Numbered from the stretch's first letter, positions 9,634 through 31,350 are shown. The stretch: DNA of 32,000 nucleotides from Candidatus Nanosynbacter lyticus (GCF_030253515.1 NZ_CP124549.1:690001-722000), one strand, 5' to 3'. The notes: generated by a model not told the origin, from the sequence alone. Numbers and translations: made by a program.

Positions 9634-10515
9634 TTATCTATGTACCATATCCATCGCCCGAATATGCGGCGGACGATGCGCTAGCTGAGGATGGCGGCGA
9701 GACGGCACAGCGATGTGAGCGCGGGAATGAGCAGTGACTTGCGGGTGGGTCAGCTCCTTTGGCTGCGGCGGTAATTTTGGCTGGGTTGGCAGTTGGTGCG
9801 GCTGGGATAGTGGGCGCTTGACAGTCGATTGCGTGTCGGTGCGTGGTGCATTAGCACGAGGTGCGGCCGCTGCAGGATTGAGCGGGCGAGTCGGGCTCGA
9901 AGGCTGAGATGAAAACGGTGGCTTCGTCAGCGGCGGGTGCGGCGGATGTGATGAGAGCGGCTTGACTGGCTGAGCCTTGACGGAAGAAAGTTTGTTGAGC
10001 GGGCGCTTGGCCGGGGCCGGCGCCGAAGCAGTGGGCTTGATCAGTGAAGCGCGTGATGGTGAGAGGGCGTACTTCGGCGGCTGGGGCTTGACGGACAGCT
10101 TGGTAAATGATGCACTTCGCGAGCGCTGGACACCACGCGGCGGCATAATGTCATGAAAGACTGCTGGTTTTTTAGGGTGAGGTTTAGCCGGTGGATTGAG
10201 AGCGGGAGTCTTTTGAGGAGCGGTAGAACGCGAGCGAGGTAAATGAGTAGAAGGTTGCGGCGGTACAACGCGAGACGCAGCCGAAGGACGAGCTGGCTGC
10301 GCGGCTACAGTTTGCCGCTGAATACTATGACGCCGAGCCGGAGCGGAGTGAGGAGAACGTGGCGCGGGTGATGTGGGAGATGCGGCGGGTACTGAAGTAG
10401 CCACCGGGCGCTGACGCGACACTGATGCTTCCGCGTCAACATCTGACACCTCGCCCTTACGACGGTTACCGAGCCGAGCTTTCTTGAATAGCTTCATCAA
10501 CTTCATCAGCGCCAC
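9634..10515 (-). CDS. Proline/serine/alanine-rich basic low-complexity protein (293 aa)
   Basis: Long ORF co-oriented with its neighbours. Strongly biased composition (P, S, A, R, K) with no globular motif. The short N-terminal MKLMKLFKKARL segment is the only non-repetitive part. Confidence 0.5.
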   Translation of the reverse strand: MALMKLMKLFKKARLGNRRKGEVSDVDAEASVSRQRPVATSVPAASPTSPAPRSPHSAPARRHSIQRQTVAAQPARPSAASRVVPPQPSTHLPRSRSTAPQKTPALNPPAKPHPKKPAVFHDIMPPRGVQRSRSASFTKLSVKPQPPKYALSPSRASLIKPTASAPAPAKRPLNKLSSVKAQPVKPLSSHPPHPPLTKPPFSSQPSSPTRPLNPAAAAPRANAPRTDTQSTVKRPLSQPHQLPTQPKLPPQPKELTHPQVTAHSRAHIAVPSRRHPQLAHRPPHIRAMDMVHR

Positions 10516-10649: not shown

Positions 10650-11117
10650 CTAGAGCAACTCATCCAGCACCGATTGCCAGTCCGGAAACTGCGGAGTACC
10701 GAAATGGATGTGCCGGCCAACAAACTCAGCGGCACCCCTGGCCGTCCGATCATCGATCAAGATATCACCGCGGCTCAGCTGTTTGACTGACGAAAAGATA
10801 ACTTTGCGAAAGAAAATATTTTCCTGACCATCACCGCCAAAATACTTCTTCACCCACGCTAGTTTATCACCCAACGCCGTCGGATTTTCCCATGGCGATG
10901 ACGAGAGGATGTATAGATCATACTTTTCCTTCAGCTTATCAACCGCCTCGAGGGCGCCTGGCATCGGATCCATCAATGCAAAAACACCCGGAATATTGTC
11001 ATATTCACCCGCAAATTTCTCAAGCATCTCAGACGGAACCTTCGTCAAGGCCGATGTAAAGTCCACCAGCACGCCGTCCATATCGAGATAGATAATTGGT
11101 TTCTTATTTTCGTTCAT
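10650..11117 (-). CDS. 5'(3')-deoxyribonucleotidase, NT5C/HAD family
   Basis: IIYLDMDGVLVDF (DxDxV HAD motif I), SSSPW, and a C-terminal ILIDDR...FGT pattern typical of NT5C-type nucleotidases. Start placed at MNENKKP (11117), which overlaps the upstream ORF by 14 nt. Confidence 0.7.
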   Translation of the reverse strand: MNENKKPIIYLDMDGVLVDFTSALTKVPSEMLEKFAGEYDNIPGVFALMDPMPGALEAVDKLKEKYDLYILSSSPWENPTALGDKLAWVKKYFGGDGQENIFFRKVIFSSVKQLSRGDILIDDRTARGAAEFVGRHIHFGTPQFPDWQSVLDELL

Positions 11118-11631
11118 CTTTACCTCTGCCAGTGAAAGATGAAAAATCACGATATGCTATATTTTTCTTCTTCGGTGCATAGCCTTTTCTGCGATGAACA
11201 AAACCATTCTGGCGAGCACGCTTTAAAGCTTCAAGTGTTGGAAACATGACCACTTCGCTCCATTCGTTTGGCAATTGACGCTGTAGAACGGCAAATTTAG
11301 GATTAATGTCTCTCACTACTACAGCCAGGATGGTCTTCATGCCTAAACAGCTCGCCAATGTTGTCCGATGCATCCCATCAACAAGCAGTAGGCCCTCATG
11401 CTCATATTCTTCAACGATAGGCGGAAGCATCACTCCACCCCCTTTTTTCTCATCTATGATGATTCCCCCTTTCTCCATCCGCAGTGTGTCTTCACCGGCT
11501 TCAAGAGTTACTCTACGCAACCACCATTGATTCTCTACCCCCGATCCGATTGCGTAATATTGGGTTGGTCTGAGACCACTAATTTTAACTTCCTCAACTG
11601 AAATATTGCTTATCAGCATAAGGGCGCTCAT
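11104..11631 (-). CDS. ParB/Srx-fold (ParB-like nuclease domain) protein
   Basis: ISGLRPTQ near the N-terminus and LLLVDGMHRT (a DGxHR-type motif) are characteristic of the ParB/sulfiredoxin fold. The start is uncertain: TTG at 11670, or ATG at 11631 or 11619. Confidence 0.5.
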   Translation of the reverse strand: MSALMLISNISVEEVKISGLRPTQYYAIGSGVENQWWLRRVTLEAGEDTLRMEKGGIIIDEKKGGGVMLPPIVEEYEHEGLLLVDGMHRTTLASCLGMKTILAVVVRDINPKFAVLQRQLPNEWSEVVMFPTLEALKRARQNGFVHRRKGYAPKKKNIAYRDFSSFTGRGKDERK

Positions 11632-11706
11632 TCTTATCAGCCAACGTCGAAGCCTGATGCAGGTTATCAATTAGCCATTCTTGCGACTTAAATCCTTTTA
11701 CCCTCA

Positions 11707-12669
11707 CTATTCTCTCCTCAACATTATTGTAAACGCCTCACTCGGAATATCAACCTTGCCAAAGCGCTTCATGCGTTTTTTGCCGCGAGCCTGTTTGGCG
11801 AGGAGCTTCTTTTTGCGGCTGACATCACCGCCATACAAATAGCCGGTGACGTCTTTGCGGTAGGCGCCGATGTTTTCGCGGGCAATGAACCTGCCACCAA
11901 TTGCCGCCTGCAGTGCCACCTCAAAGCTCTGGCGCGGTACCACGTCTTTGAGTTTTTTGACGATCTCACGGCCCAAGCCTGGCGCCTCCGAACGATGGCA
12001 CATCACGCTCAGCGCATCAACCATCTCACCCGCTACATAAAAATCCACCCGCACCAGGTCTTCCGGCTGGTAGCCCGCCAGCTCATAATTAAACGAACCG
12101 TAGCCGCTAGTTACCGACTTCAATTGATCATAAAAATCCGTCAGCAGATTTGCCAGCGGCGCCGTAAAAGAAATCAGCGCCCGCTCATCGATATAGCTGA
12201 GATTTTTCTGCCGGCCGCGCTTGGCGACAATCAGCTGAATCACTGCACCAATGTAATCCTGCGGCACCACAATTTCGCCGTCAATCCACGGCTCGCGAAT
12301 TTCTTTGATCTGCGCTGGGTCGGGTAGTTCACTAGCTGATTTGATATCCAGCTCCTCGCCATTAGTCAGGCTAACTTGATAATCCGTACTCGGATTGGTG
12401 ACGATGAGATCCAGATTATACTCACGCTCCAGCCGCTCGCGAATAATGTCCATATGAAGCAATCCCAAAAAACCAATCCGCACACCATAGCCTAGCACTG
12501 GCGAATTTTCCGGCTCAAACTGCAGTGCCGAATCGCTGAGACTTAGTTTTTCAATAGCCTCTTTCAGGTCATTATAATCTTCATTGCTCACCGGAAAGAA
12601 GCCCGCGTAGACGAAGGGCTTGACTTCTTTGTAGCCAGGCAACGGTTGGACGGTAATTTTTTCAGTCAT
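11707..12669 (-). CDS. lepA: Translation elongation factor 4 (LepA), C-terminal half (domains III, V and CTD), separated from its N-terminal half
   Basis: Begins MTEKITVQPLPGYKEVKPFVYAGFFPVSNEDY. Continues through GFLGLLHMDIIRERLEREYNLDL to GGDVSRKKKLLAKQARGKKRMKRFGKVDIPSEAFTIML. This is colinear with the second half of E. coli LepA. It may be a pseudogene fragment or an independently expressed half. Confidence 0.9.
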   Translation of the reverse strand: MTEKITVQPLPGYKEVKPFVYAGFFPVSNEDYNDLKEAIEKLSLSDSALQFEPENSPVLGYGVRIGFLGLLHMDIIRERLEREYNLDLIVTNPSTDYQVSLTNGEELDIKSASELPDPAQIKEIREPWIDGEIVVPQDYIGAVIQLIVAKRGRQKNLSYIDERALISFTAPLANLLTDFYDQLKSVTSGYGSFNYELAGYQPEDLVRVDFYVAGEMVDALSVMCHRSEAPGLGREIVKKLKDVVPRQSFEVALQAAIGGRFIARENIGAYRKDVTGYLYGGDVSRKKKLLAKQARGKKRMKRFGKVDIPSEAFTIMLRRE

Positions 12670-12680
12670 AACTGCCTACC

Positions 12681-12715
12681 ATTATATCAGTTGAGCGTTT
12701 AGCTGCTCAACTGAT
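12681..12715 (-). promoter_or_regulatory. Hairpin plus candidate promoter at the junction of island A and the lepA C-terminal half
   Basis: Perfect 11-bp inverted repeat ATCAGTTGAGC (12686-12696) / GCTCAACTGAT (12705-12715) with an 8-nt loop, directly after the stop of the 534-aa ORF. On the minus strand TTGAGC (12705-12710), an 18-nt spacer and TGaTATAAT (12681-12689) sit 11 nt from the lepA C-half ATG. Confidence 0.4.
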
Positions 12716-12719
12716 CGCA

Positions 12720-14324
12720 TCAACGGACTGGTCCATGTGGAGGCCTGATTATTCCTGCCCGTATAGCTCTAACATATTCGCCCAAGCTACCTGGCATACC
12801 GTGCCAAAATTCATCGTCATGTCGCTTCGACAAGACATCTGCCAAACGCTCGTCCTGATAGTGTTCAATTTGCTCGTATAGCTCACACAGTCGCCAGATG
12901 ATAAGCTGGTCGCTGTAGCTTGTTAAGCCTACATGTTTTAGGTTGTTAAACTGACCAACTAGCTGACGCATAATCTTAATGTTAGTATCTTCTGTAGACA
13001 GCAAGTCGCTCACGAACTCATTTATATCAAACTCTCCTAGCGGCGGTTTAACTAGGCTTATAAACTCAATAAATCCTGGTAGACACTTCTTCGCCCTCGC
13101 CTCTTCCGCCAACTTACTAAAATCTGCTTCGACACCCCAGTACAATTCTTCTTTCTCCATAGAATCACCGGCAACCAGCCTACCATCTCCAAACATATCA
13201 TCAAACTCACCGCCCATCTCCTTGACTAAAGGCTCCGCAAAACGCTTATATTCACGGAATAGTTCGACACCCTTCCCGTCTTTTATCAAACCATTGATGA
13301 CATCCATGCAGCTACTATCAGCACCATATCCGTAGAGGTTACGATAAATATCTAGTCGATCTATGCCATAATGCTTTTGATAGCGTTTGTCTCGTGTAAA
13401 GAATACACCCCTATCATAGAAAAATGCTTTAAGCTTCTCCGCCTGATCAATATAGCGATCAAGAATCAGTTCACCTAGTTTGTCGATAGCCAAACCCCTT
13501 TGATCGACTATAGTTTTCACGTCTTCCACAAAATTACGCTCACCCCGCACAGATTGCAGAGTGGCGATACCACCGTTTTTCCAAAAATAGCTTTCGCCAA
13601 CACTACTATCAGCCCCAAACCACAGCATCATGATGTCCCTCAGAGACAGATCCTCCCCCTTTTGCTGCTTGGCACAAATCTCGTCAATATTTTCGATTGT
13701 ATGTATGGTCTCCAATTTATCCTGACCCTTAGATAATTCACCGATTCTCTCATGCAGTACACCTGTCATACATGGCTCAACTCGACAGTCATCGCCGTCA
13801 ATCCCCAAAATCATTTTTATATCACCACCTTCACCCAGACACATCATGATACGAGGAATATTGTATCTACCGGTTGTGAATACAAGCATCTTAGTGATAT
13901 TTCTATGGCCAAAGGAGTCGTAACTTGATAGTGCAACCTTATACAAAAAGTCATAAATGGAGTCTGAGCCACCGGGGAACCAGCCGGTACATTGACCCTC
14001 AAGTAACGCCTGCACCTCCTCGGCTGTACCTTTTTGGGGCGTGGAAGAATCCTTATACTTACAAATTATTTCATACCACTTCCCTTGAGTCTCTCGACGT
14101 CGCTCTTGCCCTAGGCCTGTTCGGATCGCTACTTCCCTGCCATACAGCTCACCAAACTTAGCTGCCTCCAGTTCATCGGGACTATATTCCCGCAAAATTT
14201 CATATACCGCCTCAAGCGCCGCAGGATTTACCTCTGGCAAAAGTCTCTTGCTGCCAATTTCGCGAACATCAAATGTTTTGGTCTGCGGATTAAACCCTCC
14301 TAGTTCTGGACAAGCATCGATCAC
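12720..14324 (-). CDS. Hypothetical protein (534 aa), orphan; in frame with the upstream 258-aa ORF
   Basis: Long ORF with no motif I recognise. The only available start is GTG, with no SD. It shares a reading frame with ORF 14358-15134, separated by one TAG plus 11 sense codons. Confidence 0.55.
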   Translation of the reverse strand: MIDACPELGGFNPQTKTFDVREIGSKRLLPEVNPAALEAVYEILREYSPDELEAAKFGELYGREVAIRTGLGQERRRETQGKWYEIICKYKDSSTPQKGTAEEVQALLEGQCTGWFPGGSDSIYDFLYKVALSSYDSFGHRNITKMLVFTTGRYNIPRIMMCLGEGGDIKMILGIDGDDCRVEPCMTGVLHERIGELSKGQDKLETIHTIENIDEICAKQQKGEDLSLRDIMMLWFGADSSVGESYFWKNGGIATLQSVRGERNFVEDVKTIVDQRGLAIDKLGELILDRYIDQAEKLKAFFYDRGVFFTRDKRYQKHYGIDRLDIYRNLYGYGADSSCMDVINGLIKDGKGVELFREYKRFAEPLVKEMGGEFDDMFGDGRLVAGDSMEKEELYWGVEADFSKLAEEARAKKCLPGFIEFISLVKPPLGEFDINEFVSDLLSTEDTNIKIMRQLVGQFNNLKHVGLTSYSDQLIIWRLCELYEQIEHYQDERLADVLSKRHDDEFWHGMPGSLGEYVRAIRAGIIRPPHGPVR

Positions 14325-14357
14325 ATAGGACGAAAACCAGTCAGGATATCTGCCGGC

Positions 14358-15134
14358 CTACAGTGCTGCTTTCCATTCACCTAGACGCCCAAGCTGTGCA
14401 GCGCAAAAGTTATCGACCCGCCTAGTCCGCCCATCATGATGACTGTACCAAGCTCCATCGAGACCGAATCGTTCACTCCAACGAGGTGATGAAGATGATG
14501 ACTGACATAACTCTTCTTCACTAGGCAAACTGTTGACGATCTTACTTTCGGCCACCGGTATCGACATAATATATGAACGATACGGATATCTGTCCGGACC
14601 AGTATACCAGTTAGGTTTGGTGGTACTTTGCTGAGGCGGCAGTGGCGATTCTTCCTCCTCTGAGTCTGTTGTTTTACCTAGGATATACCGAGTTAGCAAC
14701 CTCAGCTTATATGTATCGTCAGCCGGATTTTTTGAACCGTATACATCCCCCAGGCGGCTATACCTCTTGACTAGTATCTCCAGGTTGCCATCCCGCCATT
14801 CACTACCTAGCCTAGTAAAGATATCACTTGCGAGTAGTTGCTCCAACTCCTCTGGAGTAGCATGCTCAGTCATGACGTCAAAAACTGCAAATATTCTGTC
14901 ACTTCGTTCCTGAGACTTCCAGCCCTCCTTTGGATCTTCGTACTCATTCAAAGATATACGGAGAGCTTCCGCCATTTGTCCGGCTACATCGAACGCGTCG
15001 GGTGCTTCTTCTCGAAGTTTCGCTACAACCTGACCCATCTTGTCAGCGGAAATATAGTCTTTGCGAAGCTCACCTTCTAGGGTCGGATCAAGAGTGGGTC
15101 TGTCAGGTGTCTCCCGATATTTATCAATCATCAT
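14358..15134 (-). CDS. Hypothetical protein (258 aa), orphan
   Basis: The ORF has an acidic segment (TDSEEEESP). The 46-nt intergenic region upstream consists of TTGACA (15166-15171), a 17-nt spacer, TAAAAT (15143-15148), 8 nt, then the ATG. Confidence 0.55.
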   Translation of the reverse strand: MMIDKYRETPDRPTLDPTLEGELRKDYISADKMGQVVAKLREEAPDAFDVAGQMAEALRISLNEYEDPKEGWKSQERSDRIFAVFDVMTEHATPEELEQLLASDIFTRLGSEWRDGNLEILVKRYSRLGDVYGSKNPADDTYKLRLLTRYILGKTTDSEEEESPLPPQQSTTKPNWYTGPDRYPYRSYIMSIPVAESKIVNSLPSEEELCQSSSSSPRWSERFGLDGAWYSHHDGRTRRVDNFCAAQLGRLGEWKAAL

Positions 15135-15180
15135 TGACTGGCATTTTACTACTTTCTTAATTATTTGTCAATATACTATG

Positions 15181-16884
15181 TCAGCGGGCCGCACCCTGGC
15201 GAATTTTCTTAAGCGTCTCAGCAATCTTCGCCTGTTGCTCGGGGCTGTAAAAGTAACCTATTGAGCTATTCACACCATTCGCCCTTCTGCCACGACATGC
15301 CAGTGGTTCCCCGAAGTCAGGATCAACCTCATTCAAAACCTTAATCGCCTTCTGAAACGCTGGTGATCCACAGTGCAAAGCGTTCATAAGGTCTGACGTT
15401 GCTAGATAGCCTTCGGGAGCTGGGCGCATATAGCCTCTTTTCAAGAAATAGTCACTTATAGCCTCTACTTGCTCCCGCGAAAGGCCTTCACAAATTTTTA
15501 CCCGACCCTTTTGACAAGAAAACCTATAGATTGAAGGTTGCAAGCCCAATGAGTGCATGGCATTTTTAATTGTCTTTCGACACACCCCAAAGCGCTTCAT
15601 TGCTGCACTTACCATAATACATCCCTCCGGGGGTGGAGGCGCAAACAATCCCCTGTCATGTGCTTTTTCTATGATCACCGCTTGCTGCTCTGGACTAAAA
15701 AACTCACGAACCTGAGGAGAACGATGCCATGAACCCTCGGACAGGATACCGTCTTCTTTAAGACTCCTCGCTATCTTTGCTATCGTCATATCACTTACAC
15801 CCAGAACATTGGCGAGAGCTTTGAGCGTCAGATACCCTTCTGGTGGCGGTAGATTAAACATACCTTTTTGCTTAAGTACTTCTTCTATCAATTCGGCCTG
15901 CTCTCTAGTAAAAACTGGTTTCTGCTTACCACACCAATCCCGCTTGGCTACCTCCCCCAAGCAGCCATCCCGCTCCAACCGGGTGGCAATGGTCGCAATG
16001 ACACGATACTTCACACCGAGCTTATCTGCTAGCCCATTGATCGTCAGGCCCCCCATTGCCTCAATCATTCGACGAGGGCTCAAATAATTACCTTGACGTT
16101 GCCTACCCATCTCAACTGGTTGCCGCAGATCATCTGCTAATGCCCCCACTAAGTGTGGAACAAAGTAATCATCACAACGCACCATCGCACCACAGCCCGG
16201 ATACTGTGCCATCACCTCCATAAGCTGTGTTTTCGTATATGCAGTCAGCTTTGCACGCTCTTCTTCTGGCAGCCGCGTTGTATCAAATACAAAGGTACCG
16301 TTGCCGTAGGCGTCACAAATCAGTACCGTCCGCTCGAGTGGTGGGATAGTTACCTCATGGTATGGCTCCTGGCGCATCATCACTGTCCCCACTTCCCCAC
16401 GACGAATCTGTAATGCTTCGCCGCTCGGCTCAATACCAAATTCATTTGCCAATATGAACAGCAGTATTTTCAGCCGTGGTTGGCGAGTAATCCACTCACG
16501 GTGGGGCGTCTCGGACATACCGGCGTCAGGTCCGGACCTATCATCGGGTGGCACAAAGACATTGCCAGTCGATTCAATCTGGCCAATAGCCGTATCAATA
16601 GCCATGAGCTGCTCCGCTTTGTCGGCAATATGGTCGAGCAGCCCGCCGATTTCCTCCACACCGTAGTAAGCAAACGCCGCATTCTCACTTTCAGCAGAAC
16701 TGTCTAGCCAAATCGTCAGCTGGTGCTTGTATGCCTGCACCATCTCATCAACCAGCTGGATCAATTTATCCAAGGCATCCTCAGCGTAGGTATCGACATT
16801 TTCAACCGTCAACGGTTGATTAATAATTTCCTCTACGCTGCTTGCAAAGTCCTTGCCATGATCAATACTACCGAGTCGCTCCAT
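15181..16884 (-). CDS. Hypothetical protein (567 aa) with four tandem HTH-like C-terminal modules
   Basis: The N-terminal 268 aa have no known motif. The C-terminal 300 aa are four repeats, with PEG(Y/C)(L/I) at residues 350, 421 and 492, an exact 71-aa period. Each has the form LAxxLGVSxxTIxKxxxxL ... (F/Y)SPEQQAxIxE. The ATG at 16884 is preferred over the track TTG at 16890. Confidence 0.6.
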   Translation of the reverse strand: MERLGSIDHGKDFASSVEEIINQPLTVENVDTYAEDALDKLIQLVDEMVQAYKHQLTIWLDSSAESENAAFAYYGVEEIGGLLDHIADKAEQLMAIDTAIGQIESTGNVFVPPDDRSGPDAGMSETPHREWITRQPRLKILLFILANEFGIEPSGEALQIRRGEVGTVMMRQEPYHEVTIPPLERTVLICDAYGNGTFVFDTTRLPEEERAKLTAYTKTQLMEVMAQYPGCGAMVRCDDYFVPHLVGALADDLRQPVEMGRQRQGNYLSPRRMIEAMGGLTINGLADKLGVKYRVIATIATRLERDGCLGEVAKRDWCGKQKPVFTREQAELIEEVLKQKGMFNLPPPEGYLTLKALANVLGVSDMTIAKIARSLKEDGILSEGSWHRSPQVREFFSPEQQAVIIEKAHDRGLFAPPPPEGCIMVSAAMKRFGVCRKTIKNAMHSLGLQPSIYRFSCQKGRVKICEGLSREQVEAISDYFLKRGYMRPAPEGYLATSDLMNALHCGSPAFQKAIKVLNEVDPDFGEPLACRGRRANGVNSSIGYFYSPEQQAKIAETLKKIRQGAAR

Positions 16885-16891
16885 GTGCAAT

Positions 16892-16920
16892 ATTATAGCA
16901 TTTTATACTATTATTGTAAA
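16892..16920 (-). promoter_or_regulatory. Near-consensus sigma70-type promoter for the 567-aa island ORF
   Basis: Minus strand: TTTACA (16915-16920), a 17-nt spacer, TGcTATAAT (16892-16900), then 7 nt to the ATG at 16884. This implies a leaderless or nearly leaderless mRNA. Confidence 0.55.
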
Positions 16921-17062
16921 TGATGAGCTCTTCCTCTCAATTACAACTAATCGCCTTAATCCGGTCACATATTCTTTACTAAACCCCATAACAACACACT
17001 GATGTCTTTATCAAATTGAAAATTTAGTTCTCATTGGTGGATTATCGGGTCAGTGAGGGCAC

Positions 17063-18052
17063 TCAATCCTCTATAATAACGTCCTCAACAGGTCGACGTT
17101 TGGAATAGGCCTGCTGCTTGCCATAGCCAATGCGCAGCAAAATAGTTGGATATTCCCCATCAAGATCAAGAGTTTTTGCCATTTCTGCGGCAATTTCTGG
17201 CTGCTCGTTCGGCTGATTTAGATAGGCATGAGCGATCCCAAGCTCCGTGGCAGTCAGCAAGAAACGCTGCAGCGTCCGACCCAAGTTCACCCATTCGCGC
17301 CGACTATTTTCTCTTGTCGTAAAAAGAACCAGATGAGAAGCCGATGCTATCTTTTCGCGATCAGCCTTATTCTGCGTCTTAGCATTGATAGCCATCGCCA
17401 TGATTGGCTCAGCCATCCAGCGCGGCACATTAGGCGCACCAAACACGGCATAGCTCAGCCCATCAAGTGTTTGATCTTGATGTTTTTTGTTAAATCGCAT
17501 CCAGCTTTTCAATTCAGCCTTAAACGCCTCATTTTGCATTTGATGCGTATTCCCCCGAAGAACGTATTGTTCAATATCATTAAACTGTTTAGTTTGACGC
17601 GCATAGTAATGAACCGACACTCCATCTTCACCGCGAATCGCCTGCAGTCTCTTTAGCGCATCTAGCGCGATTTCCTCGCCAGTATAAATACTACGATTGG
17701 TCTGCCGTAAATCTATCTGCTCAAACAGTGGACTGGACTTGACGTCCGCTCCTTCCGTGAGTGTAACTGCGATATCTCCCGTATCACCAACCGAAACGGT
17801 AGATTTATAGCCCTTAGTTTGCGCTGCCAAGCAGAGGTTCTCAGCCGCACAGCCCAGACTCACGAATAGCTCCCTGTTGTCAGGGTCGACTACTGGTAGC
17901 TTCCTGTCAAAATCAGGATGAATTTCCACCACTGACCCGTCGCGACGGAATTTCCAAGGCTGAATATTGTGCCCTGACGGTGCTTTGACTGCCTGCTTAA
18001 CTAGAAACTTAAAATCGTCTAATGATATAATGTTTCCTGTTTTCTTCGTCAT
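17063..18052 (-). CDS. Nitroreductase-family protein (Acg-like, two-lobed FMN-binding oxidoreductase)
   Basis: The N-terminal AVKAPSGHNIQPWKF motif is typical of nitroreductases. The 329-aa length fits the tandem-domain Acg-type subgroup. Promoter TTGACA (18116-18121), 16-nt spacer, TATACT (18094-18099) lies upstream. Confidence 0.65.
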   Translation of the reverse strand: MTKKTGNIISLDDFKFLVKQAVKAPSGHNIQPWKFRRDGSVVEIHPDFDRKLPVVDPDNRELFVSLGCAAENLCLAAQTKGYKSTVSVGDTGDIAVTLTEGADVKSSPLFEQIDLRQTNRSIYTGEEIALDALKRLQAIRGEDGVSVHYYARQTKQFNDIEQYVLRGNTHQMQNEAFKAELKSWMRFNKKHQDQTLDGLSYAVFGAPNVPRWMAEPIMAMAINAKTQNKADREKIASASHLVLFTTRENSRREWVNLGRTLQRFLLTATELGIAHAYLNQPNEQPEIAAEMAKTLDLDGEYPTILLRIGYGKQQAYSKRRPVEDVIIED

Positions 18053-18372
18053 AATCTTCTCAAATACCCTCTCATATTGTTACTGTTGAACCCAGTATAC
18101 TTACCAAAAAAATGGTGTCAAATAAAAGCCCCTATGACCAAGATACTCTCTACTATCCGCACTGCCAAGGCTCAGCGCTTTGAAAACCTTATCAGCACCG
18201 GGGGAAACAAAAACCCCCCGTCCGAAGCTAGCAACGACGAGGGGAGAAAAGCCAAGGATCACCGCCGTATACCGGTTCATCTTTGTCCTGGCTATCTTAC
18301 ACCGGCCCCGTGACCTGTATATTCTGCTATAGTTTGCTGGATTTGCGTGTGTCGTACTTGACTTCACCATTG

Positions 18373-18435
18373 TCATCCAAAAGACAGCACAATAGCCATC
18401 ACGATACCTACCATAAATAATCCTGCCTTTTTCAT
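18373..18435 (-). CDS. Candidate 20-aa hydrophobic peptide (MKKAGLFMVGIVMAIVLSFG)
   Basis: Translated by hand. TATAAT (18452-18457, minus strand) and the SD agaaagaaggg lie upstream of the ATG at 18435. It sits in a 536-bp stretch with no other convincing gene. A 20-codon ORF can arise by chance. Confidence 0.25.
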   Translation of the reverse strand: MKKAGLFMVGIVMAIVLSFG

Positions 18436-18588
18436 ATCCCTTCTTTCTGATATTATACGACAGCACCGACTACACAAAAATAAGCTATTATTGTCAAGCA
18501 AAGCTTAGTTGGCCGCAAGCTTTACAACTCTCTTTCAGCGATCAGGCCACGCCATAGCTTACATTATCACGGTTCACCGACAAATTAC

Positions 18589-19497
18589 TTATGAGAGCGC
18601 CAGCTCGCCAATATGCCTCCAAAACTGACGCAGATCCTTAACGTCTACGCCTTCAATATCGTAGTTTGAAAGCACACCATGCCACGTGCTGGGCACAGCG
18701 CTCTTATCTAGTAGACGGTACTTGCTGAACACAAAACCATGCGGTAGCCATGCCATGCTTATGACATCATCGTTGGCACATGGATATTCCAATATAGGAA
18801 AAGAGCAATCATATGTATCAACAATATTTCCTGGATCAATTGCTCCATAATGCTTCCACTCCCCATAGCAAAAATCAAAACCTAGTGGCAGAAGAGCCAT
18901 TTCGACACCCTCTCCCCCCTTATCTCTAGATGTCCGCATCTCCTCTACAAATGAATCCAGCGCTTGACGAGCAAGAATATCGAGCCAATCCGCCCCAAAC
19001 ATCATCGAGTCGAAATACTCGTCAATTTTTCTACAATCTTCTTTACTGAGGTTATTTGGGTCGGTTTTGGCAGTAGGCACCGTATCGTTTAAGTCACGAG
19101 GCGTGACGAGCATGGTGTCGATTGTTTTTAGCCGTGGATCTATAAATACCATTTTTGCGCCATAGTAACAGGCATTGCTCGGATAAAGGCTCGAAAATAC
19201 GAACTGGTCAAGACCAAAGTGGCAATCAAGCCTGTATGTATTAGTTCTACGGCCTGATAACTGACTGCTCGACAGTATCCCCATCTCCATGAACCGCCCA
19301 GGGAAATCACCTGAGTTAGTATAGTGCAAAAGTGGCAATCGCTCAAGACGTGCTCGTATCTCCCGAACAGCTAACTGCTCACCCTCTGATAAATCTCTCT
19401 GACTCTCCGGATGGTTATGAAAATTATCGCGCAATCGACCGGCATCAACATATTGCGCCATTCTTTCTGGTAGAACAAGCGCCTCGCTAGATGACAC
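18589..19497 (-). CDS. Hypothetical protein (302 aa), orphan
   Basis: GTG start with a gaaggat SD. Promoter TTGACA (19592-19597), 17-nt spacer, CATAAT (19569-19574) lies upstream. No motif I can name with confidence. Confidence 0.55.
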   Translation of the reverse strand: MSSSEALVLPERMAQYVDAGRLRDNFHNHPESQRDLSEGEQLAVREIRARLERLPLLHYTNSGDFPGRFMEMGILSSSQLSGRRTNTYRLDCHFGLDQFVFSSLYPSNACYYGAKMVFIDPRLKTIDTMLVTPRDLNDTVPTAKTDPNNLSKEDCRKIDEYFDSMMFGADWLDILARQALDSFVEEMRTSRDKGGEGVEMALLPLGFDFCYGEWKHYGAIDPGNIVDTYDCSFPILEYPCANDDVISMAWLPHGFVFSKYRLLDKSAVPSTWHGVLSNYDIEGVDVKDLRQFWRHIGELALS

Positions 19498-19699
19498 GCC
19501 GCCAATCCTTCTGGATCTTAAAACTGAGAAAGCCCATACAAAAACCTGCTAGCATCATAGTAAACTTAATTATGGTATAGCACTTACTTTTTGTCAAATG
19601 GGCCACCTGACCACATTGACCAAACTTTATCCCAGCCCTTTTCGCAACACGTATCCGCGGGGTGCTTTTGCAATTCAGTTAGGCCAATTGTTTGTGGAT

Positions 19700-20347
19700 T
19701 CATGGCTTACTCCTTATCACTAATTTACTCAACTGCCACACCACCATCACAATAGACCAGCCAAACAATACCACCTCCGACACCACCGTCAGCGGTACCG
19801 AGACTTCACCTGCATAGTATGTACCGACCATCTTTAGAAATGCAACACACACGCTCGTTAATATAACTATCCAAGATTTCGTAATGATCCCTGCCGCAGT
19901 AACAAATGCAGCCAACGCCAGTGCCATCCAGTGCAGTCCTGCGAACAGTTGACTCGCAGATAATACACTTATTTCTGGAGTAATCGGCAATCCATTCACC
20001 GGATAAACGAGGCGTCCGAGCGCCATCATCGCATGAAATGCACCAATTGCCACAACGATACCTAGAGCAAGCACGATACCCATGCCAACAGGATATCGCC
20101 CCCTCAGTTTAGAGTACAAAACCACGACGACAGCTAACAATATCGACGCTCCACATGCTAGCATTTCACCTGCCGCCTGCAAGACGACCTGATGTTGCTG
20201 CACCCACGCTAGCACACCTGGAGCGTTTGCTGAGGGTATCGGCAGTGACACTGCGATACTAATGCAAGCCGTGGCAAGCAAACCAAAGCTCATCAGCCAT
20301 ATAATATTACCGATATACGAAATATGCCGACTACTTTGTTTTACCAC
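19700..20347 (-). CDS. Polytopic membrane protein (215 aa), unknown function
   Basis: About 6-7 hydrophobic helices. GTG start preceded by an AAGGAG SD that lies in the tail of the chimeric lepA-derived small ORF. Confidence 0.55.
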   Translation of the reverse strand: MVKQSSRHISYIGNIIWLMSFGLLATACISIAVSLPIPSANAPGVLAWVQQHQVVLQAAGEMLACGASILLAVVVVLYSKLRGRYPVGMGIVLALGIVVAIGAFHAMMALGRLVYPVNGLPITPEISVLSASQLFAGLHWMALALAAFVTAAGIITKSWIVILTSVCVAFLKMVGTYYAGEVSVPLTVVSEVVLFGWSIVMVVWQLSKLVIRSKP

Positions 20348-20351
20348 CCTC

Positions 20352-20492
20352 TCACTCCTTCGTCATATATTTCTTTAGCGTCACCGTATCGCCCACCCGC
20401 GCTTCACGGGTGGTTTTTAGGTTGGTGACGATGTAGCCGGGTAGCGGTGTTTCCTTTCCGGAATATTCAGTCACCCCAATTGCTCCATACAT
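20352..20492 (-). CDS. Chimeric 46-aa ORF: 18 novel residues fused in frame to the duplicated lepA segment
   Basis: [46 protein letters not shown]. The underlying promoter is TTGTCA (20522-20527), a 17-nt spacer, TACTAT (20499-20504), then 6 nt to the ATG at 20492. Probably a by-product of the rearrangement rather than a gene. Confidence 0.3.
   Translation of the reverse strand: MYGAIGVTEYSGKETPLPGYIVTNLKTTREARVGDTVTLKKYMTKE
20370..20438. repeat. 69-bp direct repeat of the lepA domain II end, internal copy
   Basis: 66 of 69 nt are identical to 21235-21303. In the lepA frame it encodes [23 protein letters not shown]. All 3 differences are synonymous Leu codon changes. Confidence 0.9.
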
Positions 20493-20539
20493 AATGCTAT
20501 AGTATTTTATTTTATAAATAATGACAACTCACTCTTAAC

Positions 20540-21220
20540 TCACTGCGCCTTCGGCAAAAAACCGCGCGCTACGAGCGCCCGCCAAGCCGTGTCCGCCGAG
20601 GTGGATGGTGGCTGCGGCGTTGAAAATCCCTTATCGGGATAGCTCTTTATTCGCTCATAATCGCCTAGCATCAACGTCAACATCATGGCGGCACTGCCAT
20701 AGGTTACCTCATATAACTGATAATATGCCTCTACTGTTGTCGGCTGACTAGTCACATACAGTCGCGGCCGCGGGTGCGGCCACTGAGCCTCGGCGGTTGC
20801 CAAAAATCGACGCGTCATATACGGTTTATGGATTAAAATGATATCCTCAGCCTGAATCGCCGCCCCCGCCAGCAACTGAGCCGAACGAGTGATATTTTCG
20901 CCGGTATTAGCGGCTTGGTGTTCAAACAGGATTGCCGATTTCGGCACCGCCAAACGTTGGAGTCGTCGCCCCAGCAGTGTCGCTTCGGTTTCTGTCGCCC
21001 CATGATAGGGATTAGCAAATCCCGACACCACAATCCATGAGCTAATGCCCGCATGATATAACTCGGCCGCTCGCTCGGCACTATCGATCATAGCTCCCGC
21101 ACCGCCGATCACGATAGCATCCGCCCGCGCCGGCAGCCGACTCTCAACGCAAAGATACTCCCACAATACCTGGAGGTGATGCCAGTCTTGATCGGTGAGG
21201 GTTAGCTGGCTACGCGGCAT
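20540..21220 (-). CDS. DUF218 / YdcF-family protein
   Basis: AIVIGGAG...WIVVSG...EATLLGRRL...[19 protein letters not shown]...[12 protein letters not shown] follows the DUF218 (YdcF/SanA-like) pattern. The ATG lies 14 nt past the end of the repeated lepA segment and overlaps the out-of-frame tail of the lepA N-half ORF. Confidence 0.65.
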
Positions 21221-22191
21221 GTATACGCTCTTGGTTTCTTCAACGTCACCGTATCGCCCACCCGCGCTTCACGGGTGGTTTTCAGGTTGGTGACGATGTA
21301 GCCAATTTCGCCAGTGTCCAGCGACGGGTCGGGGATCATACCGGGACTGAGATGGCCAACCTCCAATGCCAACCCATTCGCACTGGTCGCCATCATATGA
21401 ATCGCTTCACCCTTTTTGATCTGACCATCCACCAGCCGCACGTACAAAATCACGCCGCGATAATCATCATAATAACTATCAAAAATTAGCGCCCGAGTTG
21501 GGAGATCAGCCAACGCAACATCAGGATGCTCGACCGCCAGTGGCGAAGTCGGCGCCGGGATTCGCTCAACGATCGCCGCCAAAACTTGATCGACATTCTG
21601 CCCGGTTTTGGCGGAAATATGAATAATCTCGCTTTCATCGCAGCCCAGCAGATTAATCACCTGCTTGGACACCCGTGGCACATCGGCAGCCGGCAAATCA
21701 ACTTTGTTCAGCGCTGGGATAATTATCAAATCCTGCTCCATCGCCAAGTACACATTCGCCAGCGTCTGCGCCTGAATACCCTGGCTAGCGTCAACCACCA
21801 ATACCGCCCCTTCGCAGGCCTGCAAACTACGCGACACCTCATAGCTAAAATCGACATGGCCAGGTGTGTCGATGAGGTTAAGGTCGTAAGACCCAGCTAG
21901 TGGCAATCCTTCCGATGAATCGATAGCCCTGTCGCTGGCGTTGCCTGCGACATTCGATTGAGAGGAAGTGATTGCCGCTGGCTGGCGGTAGTGATACTTC
22001 ATCCGCACCGGCGCGAGCTTAATCGTAATCCCCTTCTCACGTTCCAAATCCATACTATCCAGCAGCTGCGACTTCATCTCGCGCTTCTCCACCGTCCCCG
22101 TCATCTCCATCATCCTATCCGCCAGCGTCGACTTGCCGTGGTCGATGTGGGCAATGATGCAAAAATTACGAATACTGGTCAGCGGTTTCAT
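21202..22191 (-). CDS. lepA: Translation elongation factor 4 (LepA), N-terminal half (G domain plus domain II), truncated
   Basis: [34 protein letters not shown] and SAKTG are the G motifs. Domain II ends in [10 protein letters not shown]. An extra segment of about 26 aa ([33 protein letters not shown]) precedes DTPGH relative to E. coli LepA. The start overlaps the murJ stop (TGATG). Confidence 0.9.
21235..21303. repeat. 69-bp direct repeat, copy contiguous with the lepA N-terminal half
   Basis: Partner of 20370-20438. It forms the last authentic lepA codons (…[23 protein letters not shown]) before 12 unrelated codons and a stop. Confidence 0.9.
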
Positions 22192-27760: not shown

Positions 27761-27837
27761 TGGTAGCACCGGGTGGACCCGAACCACCGACCTCAGGCTT
27801 ATGAGTCCTGCGCTCTAACCAGCTGAGCTACGGTGCC
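27761..27837 (-). tRNA. tRNA with CAT anticodon (elongator Met or lysidine-modified Ile2; not distinguishable by eye), CCA encoded
   Basis: The reverse complement GGCACCGTAGCTCAGCTGGTTAGAGCGCAGGACTCATAAGCCTGAGGTCGGTGGTTCGGGTCCACCCGGTGCTACCA folds as a cloverleaf with D stem GCTC/GAGC, T stem GGTGG/CCACC and anticodon loop CTCATAA. TGgTACAAT (27849-27857) lies just upstream. Confidence 0.85.
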
Positions 27838-31273: not shown

Positions 31274-31350
31274 TGGTTGCGGGGGTAGGATTTGAACCTA
31301 CGACCTTTTGGTTATGAGCCAAACGAGCTACCAGGCTGCTCTACCCCGCG
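31274..31350 (-). tRNA. Initiator tRNA-fMet (CAT), CCA encoded
   Basis: The reverse complement CGCGGGGTAGAGCAGCCTGGTAGCTCGTTTGGCTCATAACCAAAAGGTCGTAGGTTCAAATCCTACCCCCGCAACCA is almost colinear with E. coli tRNA-fMet. It keeps the C1xA72 mismatch diagnostic of bacterial initiators. Confidence 0.9.

Follow-up and report, generated by a model that had tools for sequence, protein, structure and literature searches.

A probable gene-exchange hotspot within the split lepA gene of Candidatus Nanosynbacter lyticus, with a broken accessory gene among its cargo

A stretch of 32,000 nucleotides of the Candidatus Nanosynbacter lyticus genome (GCF_030253515.1, NZ_CP124549.1:690001-722000; henceforth the window, within which positions are counted) carries three consecutive open reading frames (ORFs) that a first-pass annotation, made from the sequence alone, had singled out as an orphan cluster, possibly a defence, addiction or mobility system. 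They lie on the minus strand, at 15181-16884 (567 residues), 14358-15134 (258 residues) and 12720-14324 (534 residues), with gaps of 46 and 33 nucleotides, and these coordinates were reproduced. They make two genes, not three. The first ORF, gene A, codes for a predicted DNA-binding protein, and the other two form a single gene, named BC here, cut by a nonsense codon. The explanation that we favour, and hold to be probable, is that both are accessory genes, BC being broken in this genome, and that they belong to the exchangeable cargo of a hotspot of gene exchange, which lies where lepA, the gene of the translation factor EF4, is split into two halves. The observations of the first pass were largely right and its caution was justified; its reading of the cluster as a system does not hold.

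The case of BC is straightforward. The gene (12720-15134, minus strand) comprises 803 sense codons and a terminal stop (805 codons as translated), with one in-frame TAG at codon 259 (14358-14360). A search of 5.8 billion proteins with the 534-residue product found 88 relatives, most of them 801-849 residues long and covering the 258-residue ORF too; an exact look-up of the 534-residue product itself returned no record. At the site of the stop the homologs read '...EWKAAL-E-AGRYPDWF...', with GAG, for glutamate, in place of TAG, and the closest full-length ones (801-804 residues, 90-94% identity) include 'hypothetical protein FBF27_03895' of Candidatus Saccharibacteria oral taxon 488. Along 2.4 kb of aligned DNA the TAG is the sole change that disrupts the frame, the sole indel being an in-frame one of 3 nucleotides in another genome (L001). 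Since the two ORFs share one frame across a single TAG, and since intact homologs have a glutamate there, they are one gene broken by a nonsense codon. The TAG must be taken as a genuine stop because the same codon terminates six conserved genes of the window, which rules out its reassignment to a sense codon. Two close relatives (L091 and L092) keep GAG at codon 259 and have independently changed GAG to TAG at codon 208. In the present genome, BC is most likely inactive: its product would be at most the 258-residue N-terminal module, as the 534-residue remainder would need re-initiation at a GTG located past the invariant YPDWF motif of the central domain, and would lack this motif. Annotation should accordingly show one disrupted gene, not two ORFs.

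The conserved gene into which this DNA had been said to be inserted is lepA. Its N-terminal half (21202-22191, minus strand; 329 residues, with the Pfam domains GTP_EFTU and GTP_EFTU_D2) ends with its own stop codon, and its C-terminal half (11707-12669, minus strand; 320 residues, with EFG_III, EFG_C and LepA_C) begins with its own ATG. Both are under strong purifying selection, with ratios of nonsynonymous to synonymous substitution rates (dN/dS) of 0.07 and 0.02-0.03, respectively. The break falls in the linker between domains II and III, that is, between GTP_EFTU_D2 and EFG_III, and it does so at the same point in every split allele. Intact ORFs, purifying selection and a break at a domain boundary are what is expected of a functional split gene. 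Whereas an intact lepA reads '...GDTVTVKRSHAxEPLPGYK' at this point, split N-terminal halves end in '...GDTVTL(K/R)KY(F/I/V)..' followed by the stop, and split C-terminal halves start with 'M..I(T/I)VQPLPGYK'. An origin of the split through an intein, an intron or trans-splicing was ruled out, as each half has a conserved stop or start of its own and there are no intein-sized extensions. We surveyed lepA in 80 species representatives of the Saccharibacteria. In most environmental members, among them the complete GWC2 genome CP011211.1, one half directly continues into the other in the same frame. The two are separated in each of the 20 oral Nanosynbacter-like representatives for which N- and C-terminal halves are covered (L011-L015, L017, L019-L031), as well as in seven deeper lineages, with gaps of 409 to 9905 bp overall. 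In a neighbour-joining tree of LepA the split alleles group in a single clade of 34 that also contains five intact ones. Because all split alleles share their break point, we infer that they have a common origin. We found no description in the literature of a split lepA in Saccharibacteria, nor of its cargo site.

The island that occupies the gap extends from 12670 to 21201. The three ORFs do fill the 4.2 kb initially ascribed to the cluster, while the AT-richer region itself is 8.5 kb long and contains further genes, for a DUF218 protein, a membrane protein, a 302-residue protein without family and a nitroreductase. The contrast in composition is real, with 47.4% GC in the island against 51.1% and 53.9% in the flanks, and it is smaller than the 45% against 55% that had been counted on single lines; at third codon positions, GC (GC3) is 0.43-0.49 in cargo genes against 0.51-0.66 in core genes. 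Scans of the island with Pfam, NCBIfam and PHROGs bear out the first reading in that they revealed neither an integrase or transposase nor any structural gene of phages. Neither terminal inverted repeats nor a target duplication was found there: the only long repeat is a 69-nucleotide duplicate of lepA sequence, which brackets the DUF218 gene and not A or BC.

What the gap contains differs from one strain to the next. In 29 loci, the lepA gaps hold 130 cargo ORFs of 47 families, nearly all of them oriented as lepA; where the gap is smallest, it is filled by one gene only, packed between the stop codon of the N-terminal half and the start of the C-terminal one. A first set of functions belongs to the house-cleaning of nucleotides and DNA, with three NUDIX families, Ham1, a MazG-like protein and DNA-alkylation repair. 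Other enzymes are GrpB, peptidase S51, nitroreductase, an EEP nuclease/phosphatase and a methyltransferase. Also present are domains of unknown function (DUF218, DUF6994) and domains common in conflict systems (T5orf172, Fic with a helix-turn-helix (HTH), and a fusion of poly(A)-polymerase to AlbA_2), and many cargo ORFs match no identified family. There is no recombinase among the families scanned in these 29 loci. Three genomes with 98-99% LepA_C identity to the window (L011-L013) have entirely different cargo, and two of them, L011 and L012 (99% identity), lack both A and BC. Conserved flanks enclosing different contents in close relatives define a recombination hotspot flanked by core genes, and the lepA gap fits this definition.

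Partial duplicates of lepA appear to be traces of the way in which cargo came in. In the window, a copy of the 3' end of the N-terminal half lies at 20352-20438 (minus strand; a 69-nucleotide direct repeat, 96% identical to its resident counterpart at 21235-21303, also detected by tblastn, and with '...KKYMTKE' followed by a stop, which is the canonical end of split alleles), so that the DUF218 gene (20540-21220, minus strand; Pfam) is bracketed by two lepA_N 3' ends. In four other loci, partial duplicates of the 5' end of the C-terminal half stand upstream of a cargo gene: L001 (CP040000.1; 7146-7460), L014 (8698-8820), L020 (7967-8092) and L031 (7987-8112). These duplicates look like scars of the recombination events that added cassettes. 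Synonymous divergence (dS) points to the same kind of history: for the same genome pairs it is 0.10-0.22 in BC, 0.61 in A, 0.36 in murJ and 0.72-0.80 in lepA_C, which indicates that the ancestry of the locus is mosaic. As for integrons, no integrase was met in the 29 loci and no inverted repeat recurs between cassettes in the window, a check that included no dedicated search with an attC model. Saccharibacteria are naturally competent and integrate DNA via homology arms of about 1 kb (PMC10633639), and in oral G1 genomes synteny is kept while single genes are gained by recombination (PMC7427843).

Put together, these features suggest the following course. lepA is split in the Nanosynbacter-like clade and its halves persist as separate genes, while the space between them would gain, swap and lose unrelated co-oriented genes. 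In view of the scars and of the mosaic ancestry, cells probably take up the DNA by natural transformation and recombine it at the lepA halves, whose high conservation would provide the anchors; sometimes homology would be used at one end only, leaving partial lepA duplicates and mosaic ancestry behind. A and the N-terminal module of BC would constitute a frequent yet dispensable pair, with an exchangeable BC body.

This last point comes from the distribution of the genes. Combining context look-ups with a scan of metagenomes, BC-family genes, or genes of a related type named P0123, were found between lepA halves in 32 of the 32 loci with informative flanks, and the gene directly upstream of the BC family is an A-family one in 28 of the 32 loci whose upstream flank is covered. 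The pairing is not obligate, as each gene is found without the other: L019 has A without BC, and in L103, L107 and L113 BC directly follows lepA_N without A. The neighbourhood comparison that the first pass had called for shows therefore frequent adjacency, not a conserved trio: two of the three ORFs are one broken gene, and A and BC also occur apart. Alleles of A are shuffled relative to those of BC; the identity with the CP040000.1 counterparts is 93% for BC and just 64% for A. In the P0123 family the N-terminal module of BC (the first ~180 residues, 52-62% identity) is carried by a different body of ~480 residues, and in L015 and L093 such a gene comes after an A-like gene sharing 76-92% identity with the A that precedes BC-type genes in L002. 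Decay is common. BC is frameshifted or fragmentary in L015, L020, L031, L102, L116, L117 and L118, and either partner may be the broken one (L093, L118), L093 having an intact P0123-type partner beside a frameshifted A. This rules out a rule of the type 'antitoxin retained, toxin lost'. Selection on the two genes is relaxed without being absent: dN/dS is 0.18-0.42 in BC and 0.4 in A, and core genes have 0.02-0.07. A and BC are thus a frequent, fast-evolving and dispensable pair with an exchangeable payload, and no self-contained system.

The protein encoded by gene A (15181-16884, minus strand; 567 residues from ATG, or 569 from an in-frame TTG at 16890) associates two parts. Its N-terminal domain of ~260 residues is specific to the family, with D31, Y33, Y52, E67, R171, Y175, C190, N195, T197 and K218 invariant in the alignments. 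A profile made from this domain retrieved 16 proteins, all from Saccharibacteria and none with added domains, and the profile search detected no relative elsewhere. The remainder consists of about four winged-helix repeats of ~65 residues, of the form 'PPEGYL - HTH - wing - YSPEQQ..I' in the alignments; paralogs have three to seven of them. The HTH modules that had been noticed at the C-terminus are therefore there, and they occupy residues ~270-567, about half of the protein and not its C-terminal tip alone. Matches to known families are weak. Pfam gives winged-helix matches only, at residues 274-311 and 350-386, with HTH_24 at 22.7 bits for a cutoff of 21.9 and MarR, GntR and Crp-like profiles slightly under their cutoffs; in NCBIfam the DNA-binding (HTH) part of the IS630 transposase scores 25 bits for a cutoff of 100. 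The best PADLOC scores for the ORFs (E 0.007-0.04, 12-14 bits) concern only HTHs or a short stretch. The AlphaFold2 (AF2) model, with a predicted local distance difference test score (pLDDT) of 74.6, displays units made of a helix-turn-helix plus a hairpin. Foldseek found no match to it in the PDB at E<=1e-3, while in BFVD it matches phage HTH, MerR and excisionase-type proteins (E from 1.2e-4, the best, to 2e-3). On the strength of the Pfam matches, of the tandem repeats and of the BFVD folds, A belongs with the winged-helix proteins (HTH plus wing) and is predicted to bind DNA. Distant paralogs (29-38% identity) are solitary, after ftsK (L005) or holA (L008), and also in L006; one solitary paralog was seen on 41 contigs.

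As had been proposed for the first two ORFs, A and BC each have a near-consensus promoter-like site directly upstream, with 11 of 12 consensus matches: TTTACA-17-TATAAT with TG at 16892-16920 for A, and TTGACA-17-TAAAAT at 15143-15171 for BC (both on the minus strand). Judging from this match to the consensus, the -10 box ends 7 nucleotides before the ATG of A and 8 before that of BC, and both mRNAs may be leaderless. The spacer between BC and lepA_C (12670-12719, minus strand) holds a perfect inverted repeat of 11 bp, ATCAGTTGAGC...GCTCAACTGAT, which overlaps a promoter-like site (TTGAGC-18-TATAAT, 12681-12710) located 11 nucleotides upstream of the lepA_C ATG; a similar '...GCTGAGCTGATATAAT' sequence exists in L017 and L024. 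With -10 boxes 7, 8 and 11 nucleotides before the starts of A, BC and lepA_C, leaderless or near-leaderless mRNAs are suggested for all three.

BC is a cytoplasmic modular protein. Three parts are delineated by domain limits drawn from an exhaustive profile search and by secondary structure taken from the AF2 model: residues ~15-195 form an N-terminal module made of helices, residues ~255-550 a central alpha/beta domain, and the C-terminal domain is helical again. The orphan status claimed at first stands. Neither the two ORFs nor the intact BC matches a family in Pfam, PADLOC, NCBIfam or PHROGs; sequence-profile searches of the PDB with three alignments and a Foldseek search of the BC fold against the PDB gave no match either. 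Cluster names, where looked up, were blank without exception. Pfam, and Foldseek against the PDB, gave no sign in A or BC of a fold typical of nucleases, NTPases, proteases or toxins, and the profile and structure searches assigned the ORFs to no known enzymatic, structural, defence or phage family. Scans of viral contigs with the A and BC profiles found neither gene.

The central domain is what connects BC to other organisms. Run on 1.84 billion representatives, an exhaustive HMMER search with the BC profile returned 433 proteins at E<=1e-3. Apart from relatives of BC and fragments of the N-terminal module, these match only the central ~300 residues (positions ~280-590), following the pattern YPDWF...R...F..Y...G.W...TGW(C)...PR...(EVR)G...E. 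BC keeps 12 of the 15 invariant residues, which places its central domain, by sequence, in an unnamed family that is widespread in the candidate phyla radiation (CPR). None of the ten remote members that were scanned has a Pfam domain, and the two that could be located sit amid housekeeping genes in small CPR genomes (L009 and L010). A catalytic role was considered: inspection by eye for PD-(D/E)xK, transglutaminase and ART motifs disclosed no consistent motif, and the candidate cysteine, glutamate and arginine are absent from BC. When IMG/VR was scanned with a profile of the remote family, two viral contigs came out (L094 and L095). Downstream of the homolog, both encode a reverse transcriptase (RT) and a large serine recombinase, and one of them has a terminase-like gene as well. 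In both contigs the homolog's 3' end recurs ~430-490 nucleotides downstream, and the mismatches between this variable repeat (VR) and its template repeat (TR) fall on TR adenines in 24 of 25 and 19 of 21 cases. The presence of an RT and this adenine specificity identify the two loci (L094:8001-11832 and L095:7974-12011) as true diversity-generating retroelements (DGRs), whose variable protein is the BC-like homolog. The VR-bearing C-terminal domains recur in about 18 of ~140 representatives of the remote family. CPR bacteria have a DGR clade of their own (PMC8144416). An (AGAC)n microsatellite of ~30 units lies inside the RT-coding ORF of the L094 element (L094:11301-11444).

The window has no RT, nor any repeat that matches the 3' end of BC, and BC is consequently no DGR target by the usual definition. 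Its tail is helical, and what it has in common with the DGR proteins is the scaffold, not the hypervariable tip. In its CPR and phage relatives this scaffold would be coupled to ligand-binding tips hypermutated by DGRs. Since the central domain is the scaffold of such diversified proteins, we favour, with low confidence, a fast-evolving accessory protein of a binding or conflict type, with A as its DNA-bound partner or regulator. BC probably binds a ligand or a partner. An enzyme pathway, a toxin-antitoxin pair and a mobility apparatus are not favoured.

Four other explanations deserve to be weighed. A and BC could form an active two-component conflict system, directed against phages or against the host bacterium, with BC as the effector and A sensing DNA or being tethered to it; the stop codons would then reflect an adaptive fission, after which the N-terminal module and the body act as two polypeptides. 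Adjacency in 28 of 32 informative loci speaks for it, and so do fast evolution (dN/dS of 0.2-0.4 against 0.02-0.07 in the core), the recent exchange of BC between strains witnessed by its low dS, a body that can be swapped behind a conserved N-terminal module, a central domain common to DGR variable proteins of phage-like contigs, and neighbouring cargo that includes Fic, T5orf172, SLFN_AlbA_2 and a methyltransferase; moreover, the two independent stops, at codons 208 and 259, fall in the same stretch between domains, with no further damage. Yet the defence role evoked by the first pass has no PADLOC or other defence match behind it and no positive evidence, no fold of a nuclease, NTPase, protease or toxin was found, A and BC each occur alone, either can be frameshifted beside an intact partner (L093, L118), the 534-residue ORF starts past the invariant YPDWF, and the rest of the cargo is mostly nucleotide house-cleaning and miscellaneous enzymes. 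We consider this explanation unlikely. Somewhat more unlikely still is that both are ordinary lineage-specific cellular proteins, A being a multi-winged-helix paralog with a chromosomal or regulatory role and BC a cytoplasmic scaffold, whose residence in the hotspot would be incidental. Lone A paralogs do live in housekeeping neighbourhoods (near ftsK in L005 and holA in L008, in L006, and one on 41 contigs), remote homologs of the BC domain do the same in the CPR genomes L009 and L010, and other gap cargo is metabolic. This fits poorly with a presence that is patchy among close relatives (L011 and L012, at 99% LepA_C identity, have neither gene), with frequent disruption, with constraint that is relaxed relative to core genes and with a GC3 unlike theirs.

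The addiction module imagined at first would make BC a toxin and A its DNA-binding antidote and autoregulator. An HTH protein upstream of a larger partner, each with its promoter, is reminiscent of such pairs, and BC is inactivated with A intact in the window, L091 and L092, while L019 has A alone. But proteins of 567 and 803 residues are unlike known toxin-antitoxin pairs, no toxin or antitoxin family or fold was matched (Pfam, NCBIfam, PADLOC, PDB), BC does without A in L103, L107 and L113 where co-occurrence should be obligate, the P0123-type partner of L093 is intact beside a frameshifted A, and a locus that is chromosomal and fixed has nothing that needs stabilisation: the idea is very improbable. 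Hardly credible, finally, is a mobility module in which an excisionase-like A and a novel recombinase, BC, would have inserted the island into lepA. It would account for the fact that every BC-family gene sits in the lepA split, for the resemblance of the A modules to excisionase and MerR HTHs (together with the weak IS630 DNA-binding match, 25 bits for a cutoff of 100) and for the lack of a classical recombinase. Nevertheless, the closest relatives (L011, L012) have the same split and neither A nor BC, and deeper lineages (L034, L035, L044, L047, L073) have it with a single small unrelated gene in place of the pair; the break point and the junction sequences are identical whatever the cargo; scars derived from lepA are seen in place of terminal inverted repeats or target duplications; no catalytic signature of a DDE, serine or tyrosine recombinase was found (Pfam, NCBIfam); and A and BC were not found in viral contigs.

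Several points weigh against the explanation that we prefer, that of swappable cargo in a split-lepA hotspot, or against parts of it. A single-protein neighbour-joining tree puts five intact alleles inside the split clade, and lepA may have been split repeatedly at one specific site, or re-fused. The recombination mechanism is a proposal drawn from scars and mosaicism. As regards decay, 19 of 23 metagenomic BC copies are intact and the dN/dS of BC is below 1, which argues that BC is maintained in many strains, and the truncated BC could retain some activity. Only remote homologs, ~29% identical over the central domain, connect BC with DGRs; BC lacks three of the 15 invariant residues of the remote family (the cysteine, glutamate and arginine), no RT, TR or VR lies close to it, and it ends in helices. 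The AF2 models of both proteins are mediocre, with a pLDDT of 61 for BC, worst in the central domain, and of 74.6 for A.

A bolder version of the hotspot explanation would see the lepA break as a dedicated, recombinase-free platform for gene capture, and A with the N-terminal module and its exchangeable body as a new polymorphic module of conflict or host interaction. A translation factor that is split yet functional would then supply two ultra-conserved homology anchors as well as read-through transcription, competent epibionts would shuffle accessory genes between strains via the lepA site, and the central domain of the module would be a scaffold that CPR phages diversify with DGRs. We find this proposal attractive and doubtful.

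Comparison with known systems shows where the locus departs from them. Chromosomal hotspots flanked by conserved core genes are familiar as 'regions of genome plasticity', the pneumococcal dexB-aliA capsule locus, which is replaced by transformation, being an example. The lepA locus is like them in its conserved flanks, variable content, mosaic ancestry and naturally transformable host, and in the lack of a dedicated recombinase. It differs in that the flanks are two retained halves of one gene, split in an inter-domain linker, that the cargo is nearly always co-oriented and, in compact versions, translationally packed between the halves, and that partial lepA duplicates mark the boundaries of cassettes. 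Split protein-coding genes are also known in reduced genomes such as that of Nanoarchaeum equitans, and lepA resembles them as two ORFs broken at a domain boundary and both under purifying selection; here, by contrast, the halves stay at one locus, in the same orientation, with a variable cargo site as their gap. DGR variable proteins reportedly exist in CPR bacteria and in the phages that infect them (PMC8144416; Paul et al. 2017). The central domain of BC (~255-550) is homologous to the body that precedes the VR in the L094 and L095 targets, whereas BC has no RT, TR or VR, ends in an unrelated helical C-terminus, lacks the cysteine, glutamate and arginine, and carries an N-terminal module specific to Saccharibacteria. 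Polymorphic toxin and effector loci combine a conserved N-terminal region with an exchangeable C-terminal domain and a downstream immunity gene. BC recalls them by the presence of its N-terminal module on two alternative bodies (BC-type and P0123-type), at the same locus and behind the same group of A alleles; unlike them, it showed neither a domain for secretion or trafficking nor a known toxin domain, and an immunity gene was not consistently found downstream of it. Each repeat of A models as an HTH plus a wing, as in the excisionase/MerR (HTH_17-like) and MarR/GntR proteins, from which A differs by having about four tandem copies behind a novel domain of 260 residues.

Saccharibacteria have tiny, highly syntenic genomes and the route by which they acquire strain-specific genes is poorly understood. 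The site in lepA offers a locus that can be addressed by the polymerase chain reaction for tracking gene flow in oral epibionts, and a natural 'landing pad' for engineering by transformation. The split suggests besides that EF4 is workable as two polypeptides. The orphan pair in itself is moderately interesting; more useful are the hotspot and the connection of the central-domain family with DGRs. This CPR family, DGR targets included, is a better entry to function than the broken BC copy.

The rest of the island follows the same pattern of diverse cargo on the minus strand. A nitroreductase-family gene (17063-18052; Pfam) is found as cargo in L014, L016, L020, L031 and L091 as well. Upstream of it, ~540 nucleotides (18053-18588) contain no convincing gene, just an odd ORF of 121 residues (18101-18466), and a promoter-like site (TTGACA-16-TATACT) lies at 18121-18094; in L091 a T5orf172 gene fills this slot. 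Then come the 302-residue protein without family (18589-19497), a remnant of 26 codons of a MazG/dUTPase_2-type gene (19626-19703) and the multi-pass membrane protein (19700-20347; 215 residues, no family), of which L013 has a 75%-identical copy. The remnant, whose gene is intact in L001, L003, L020 and L023, shows cargo decaying in place.

Rfam and tRNA scans of the window detected only two tRNA-Met genes (CAT), neither of them in the island, 3.5 kb apart on the minus strand (27761-27837 and 31274-31350). Between NT5C and gmk, a low-complexity ORF rich in proline, serine and alanine (9634-10515, minus strand; 293 residues) coincides with the only positive GC skew of the window (+0.10 to +0.24) and with its highest GC content (0.59-0.60); CP040000.1 has an ORF with no Pfam match at the equivalent position (L001:14030-14986). 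Between lepA_C and NT5C, a gene for a ParB-CE-domain protein (11104-11670, minus strand; 188 residues) overlaps the start of NT5C by 47 nucleotides. It is present in some relatives only (L012, L014, L018; 62-63% identity), so that the slot directly downstream of lepA_C is variable too.

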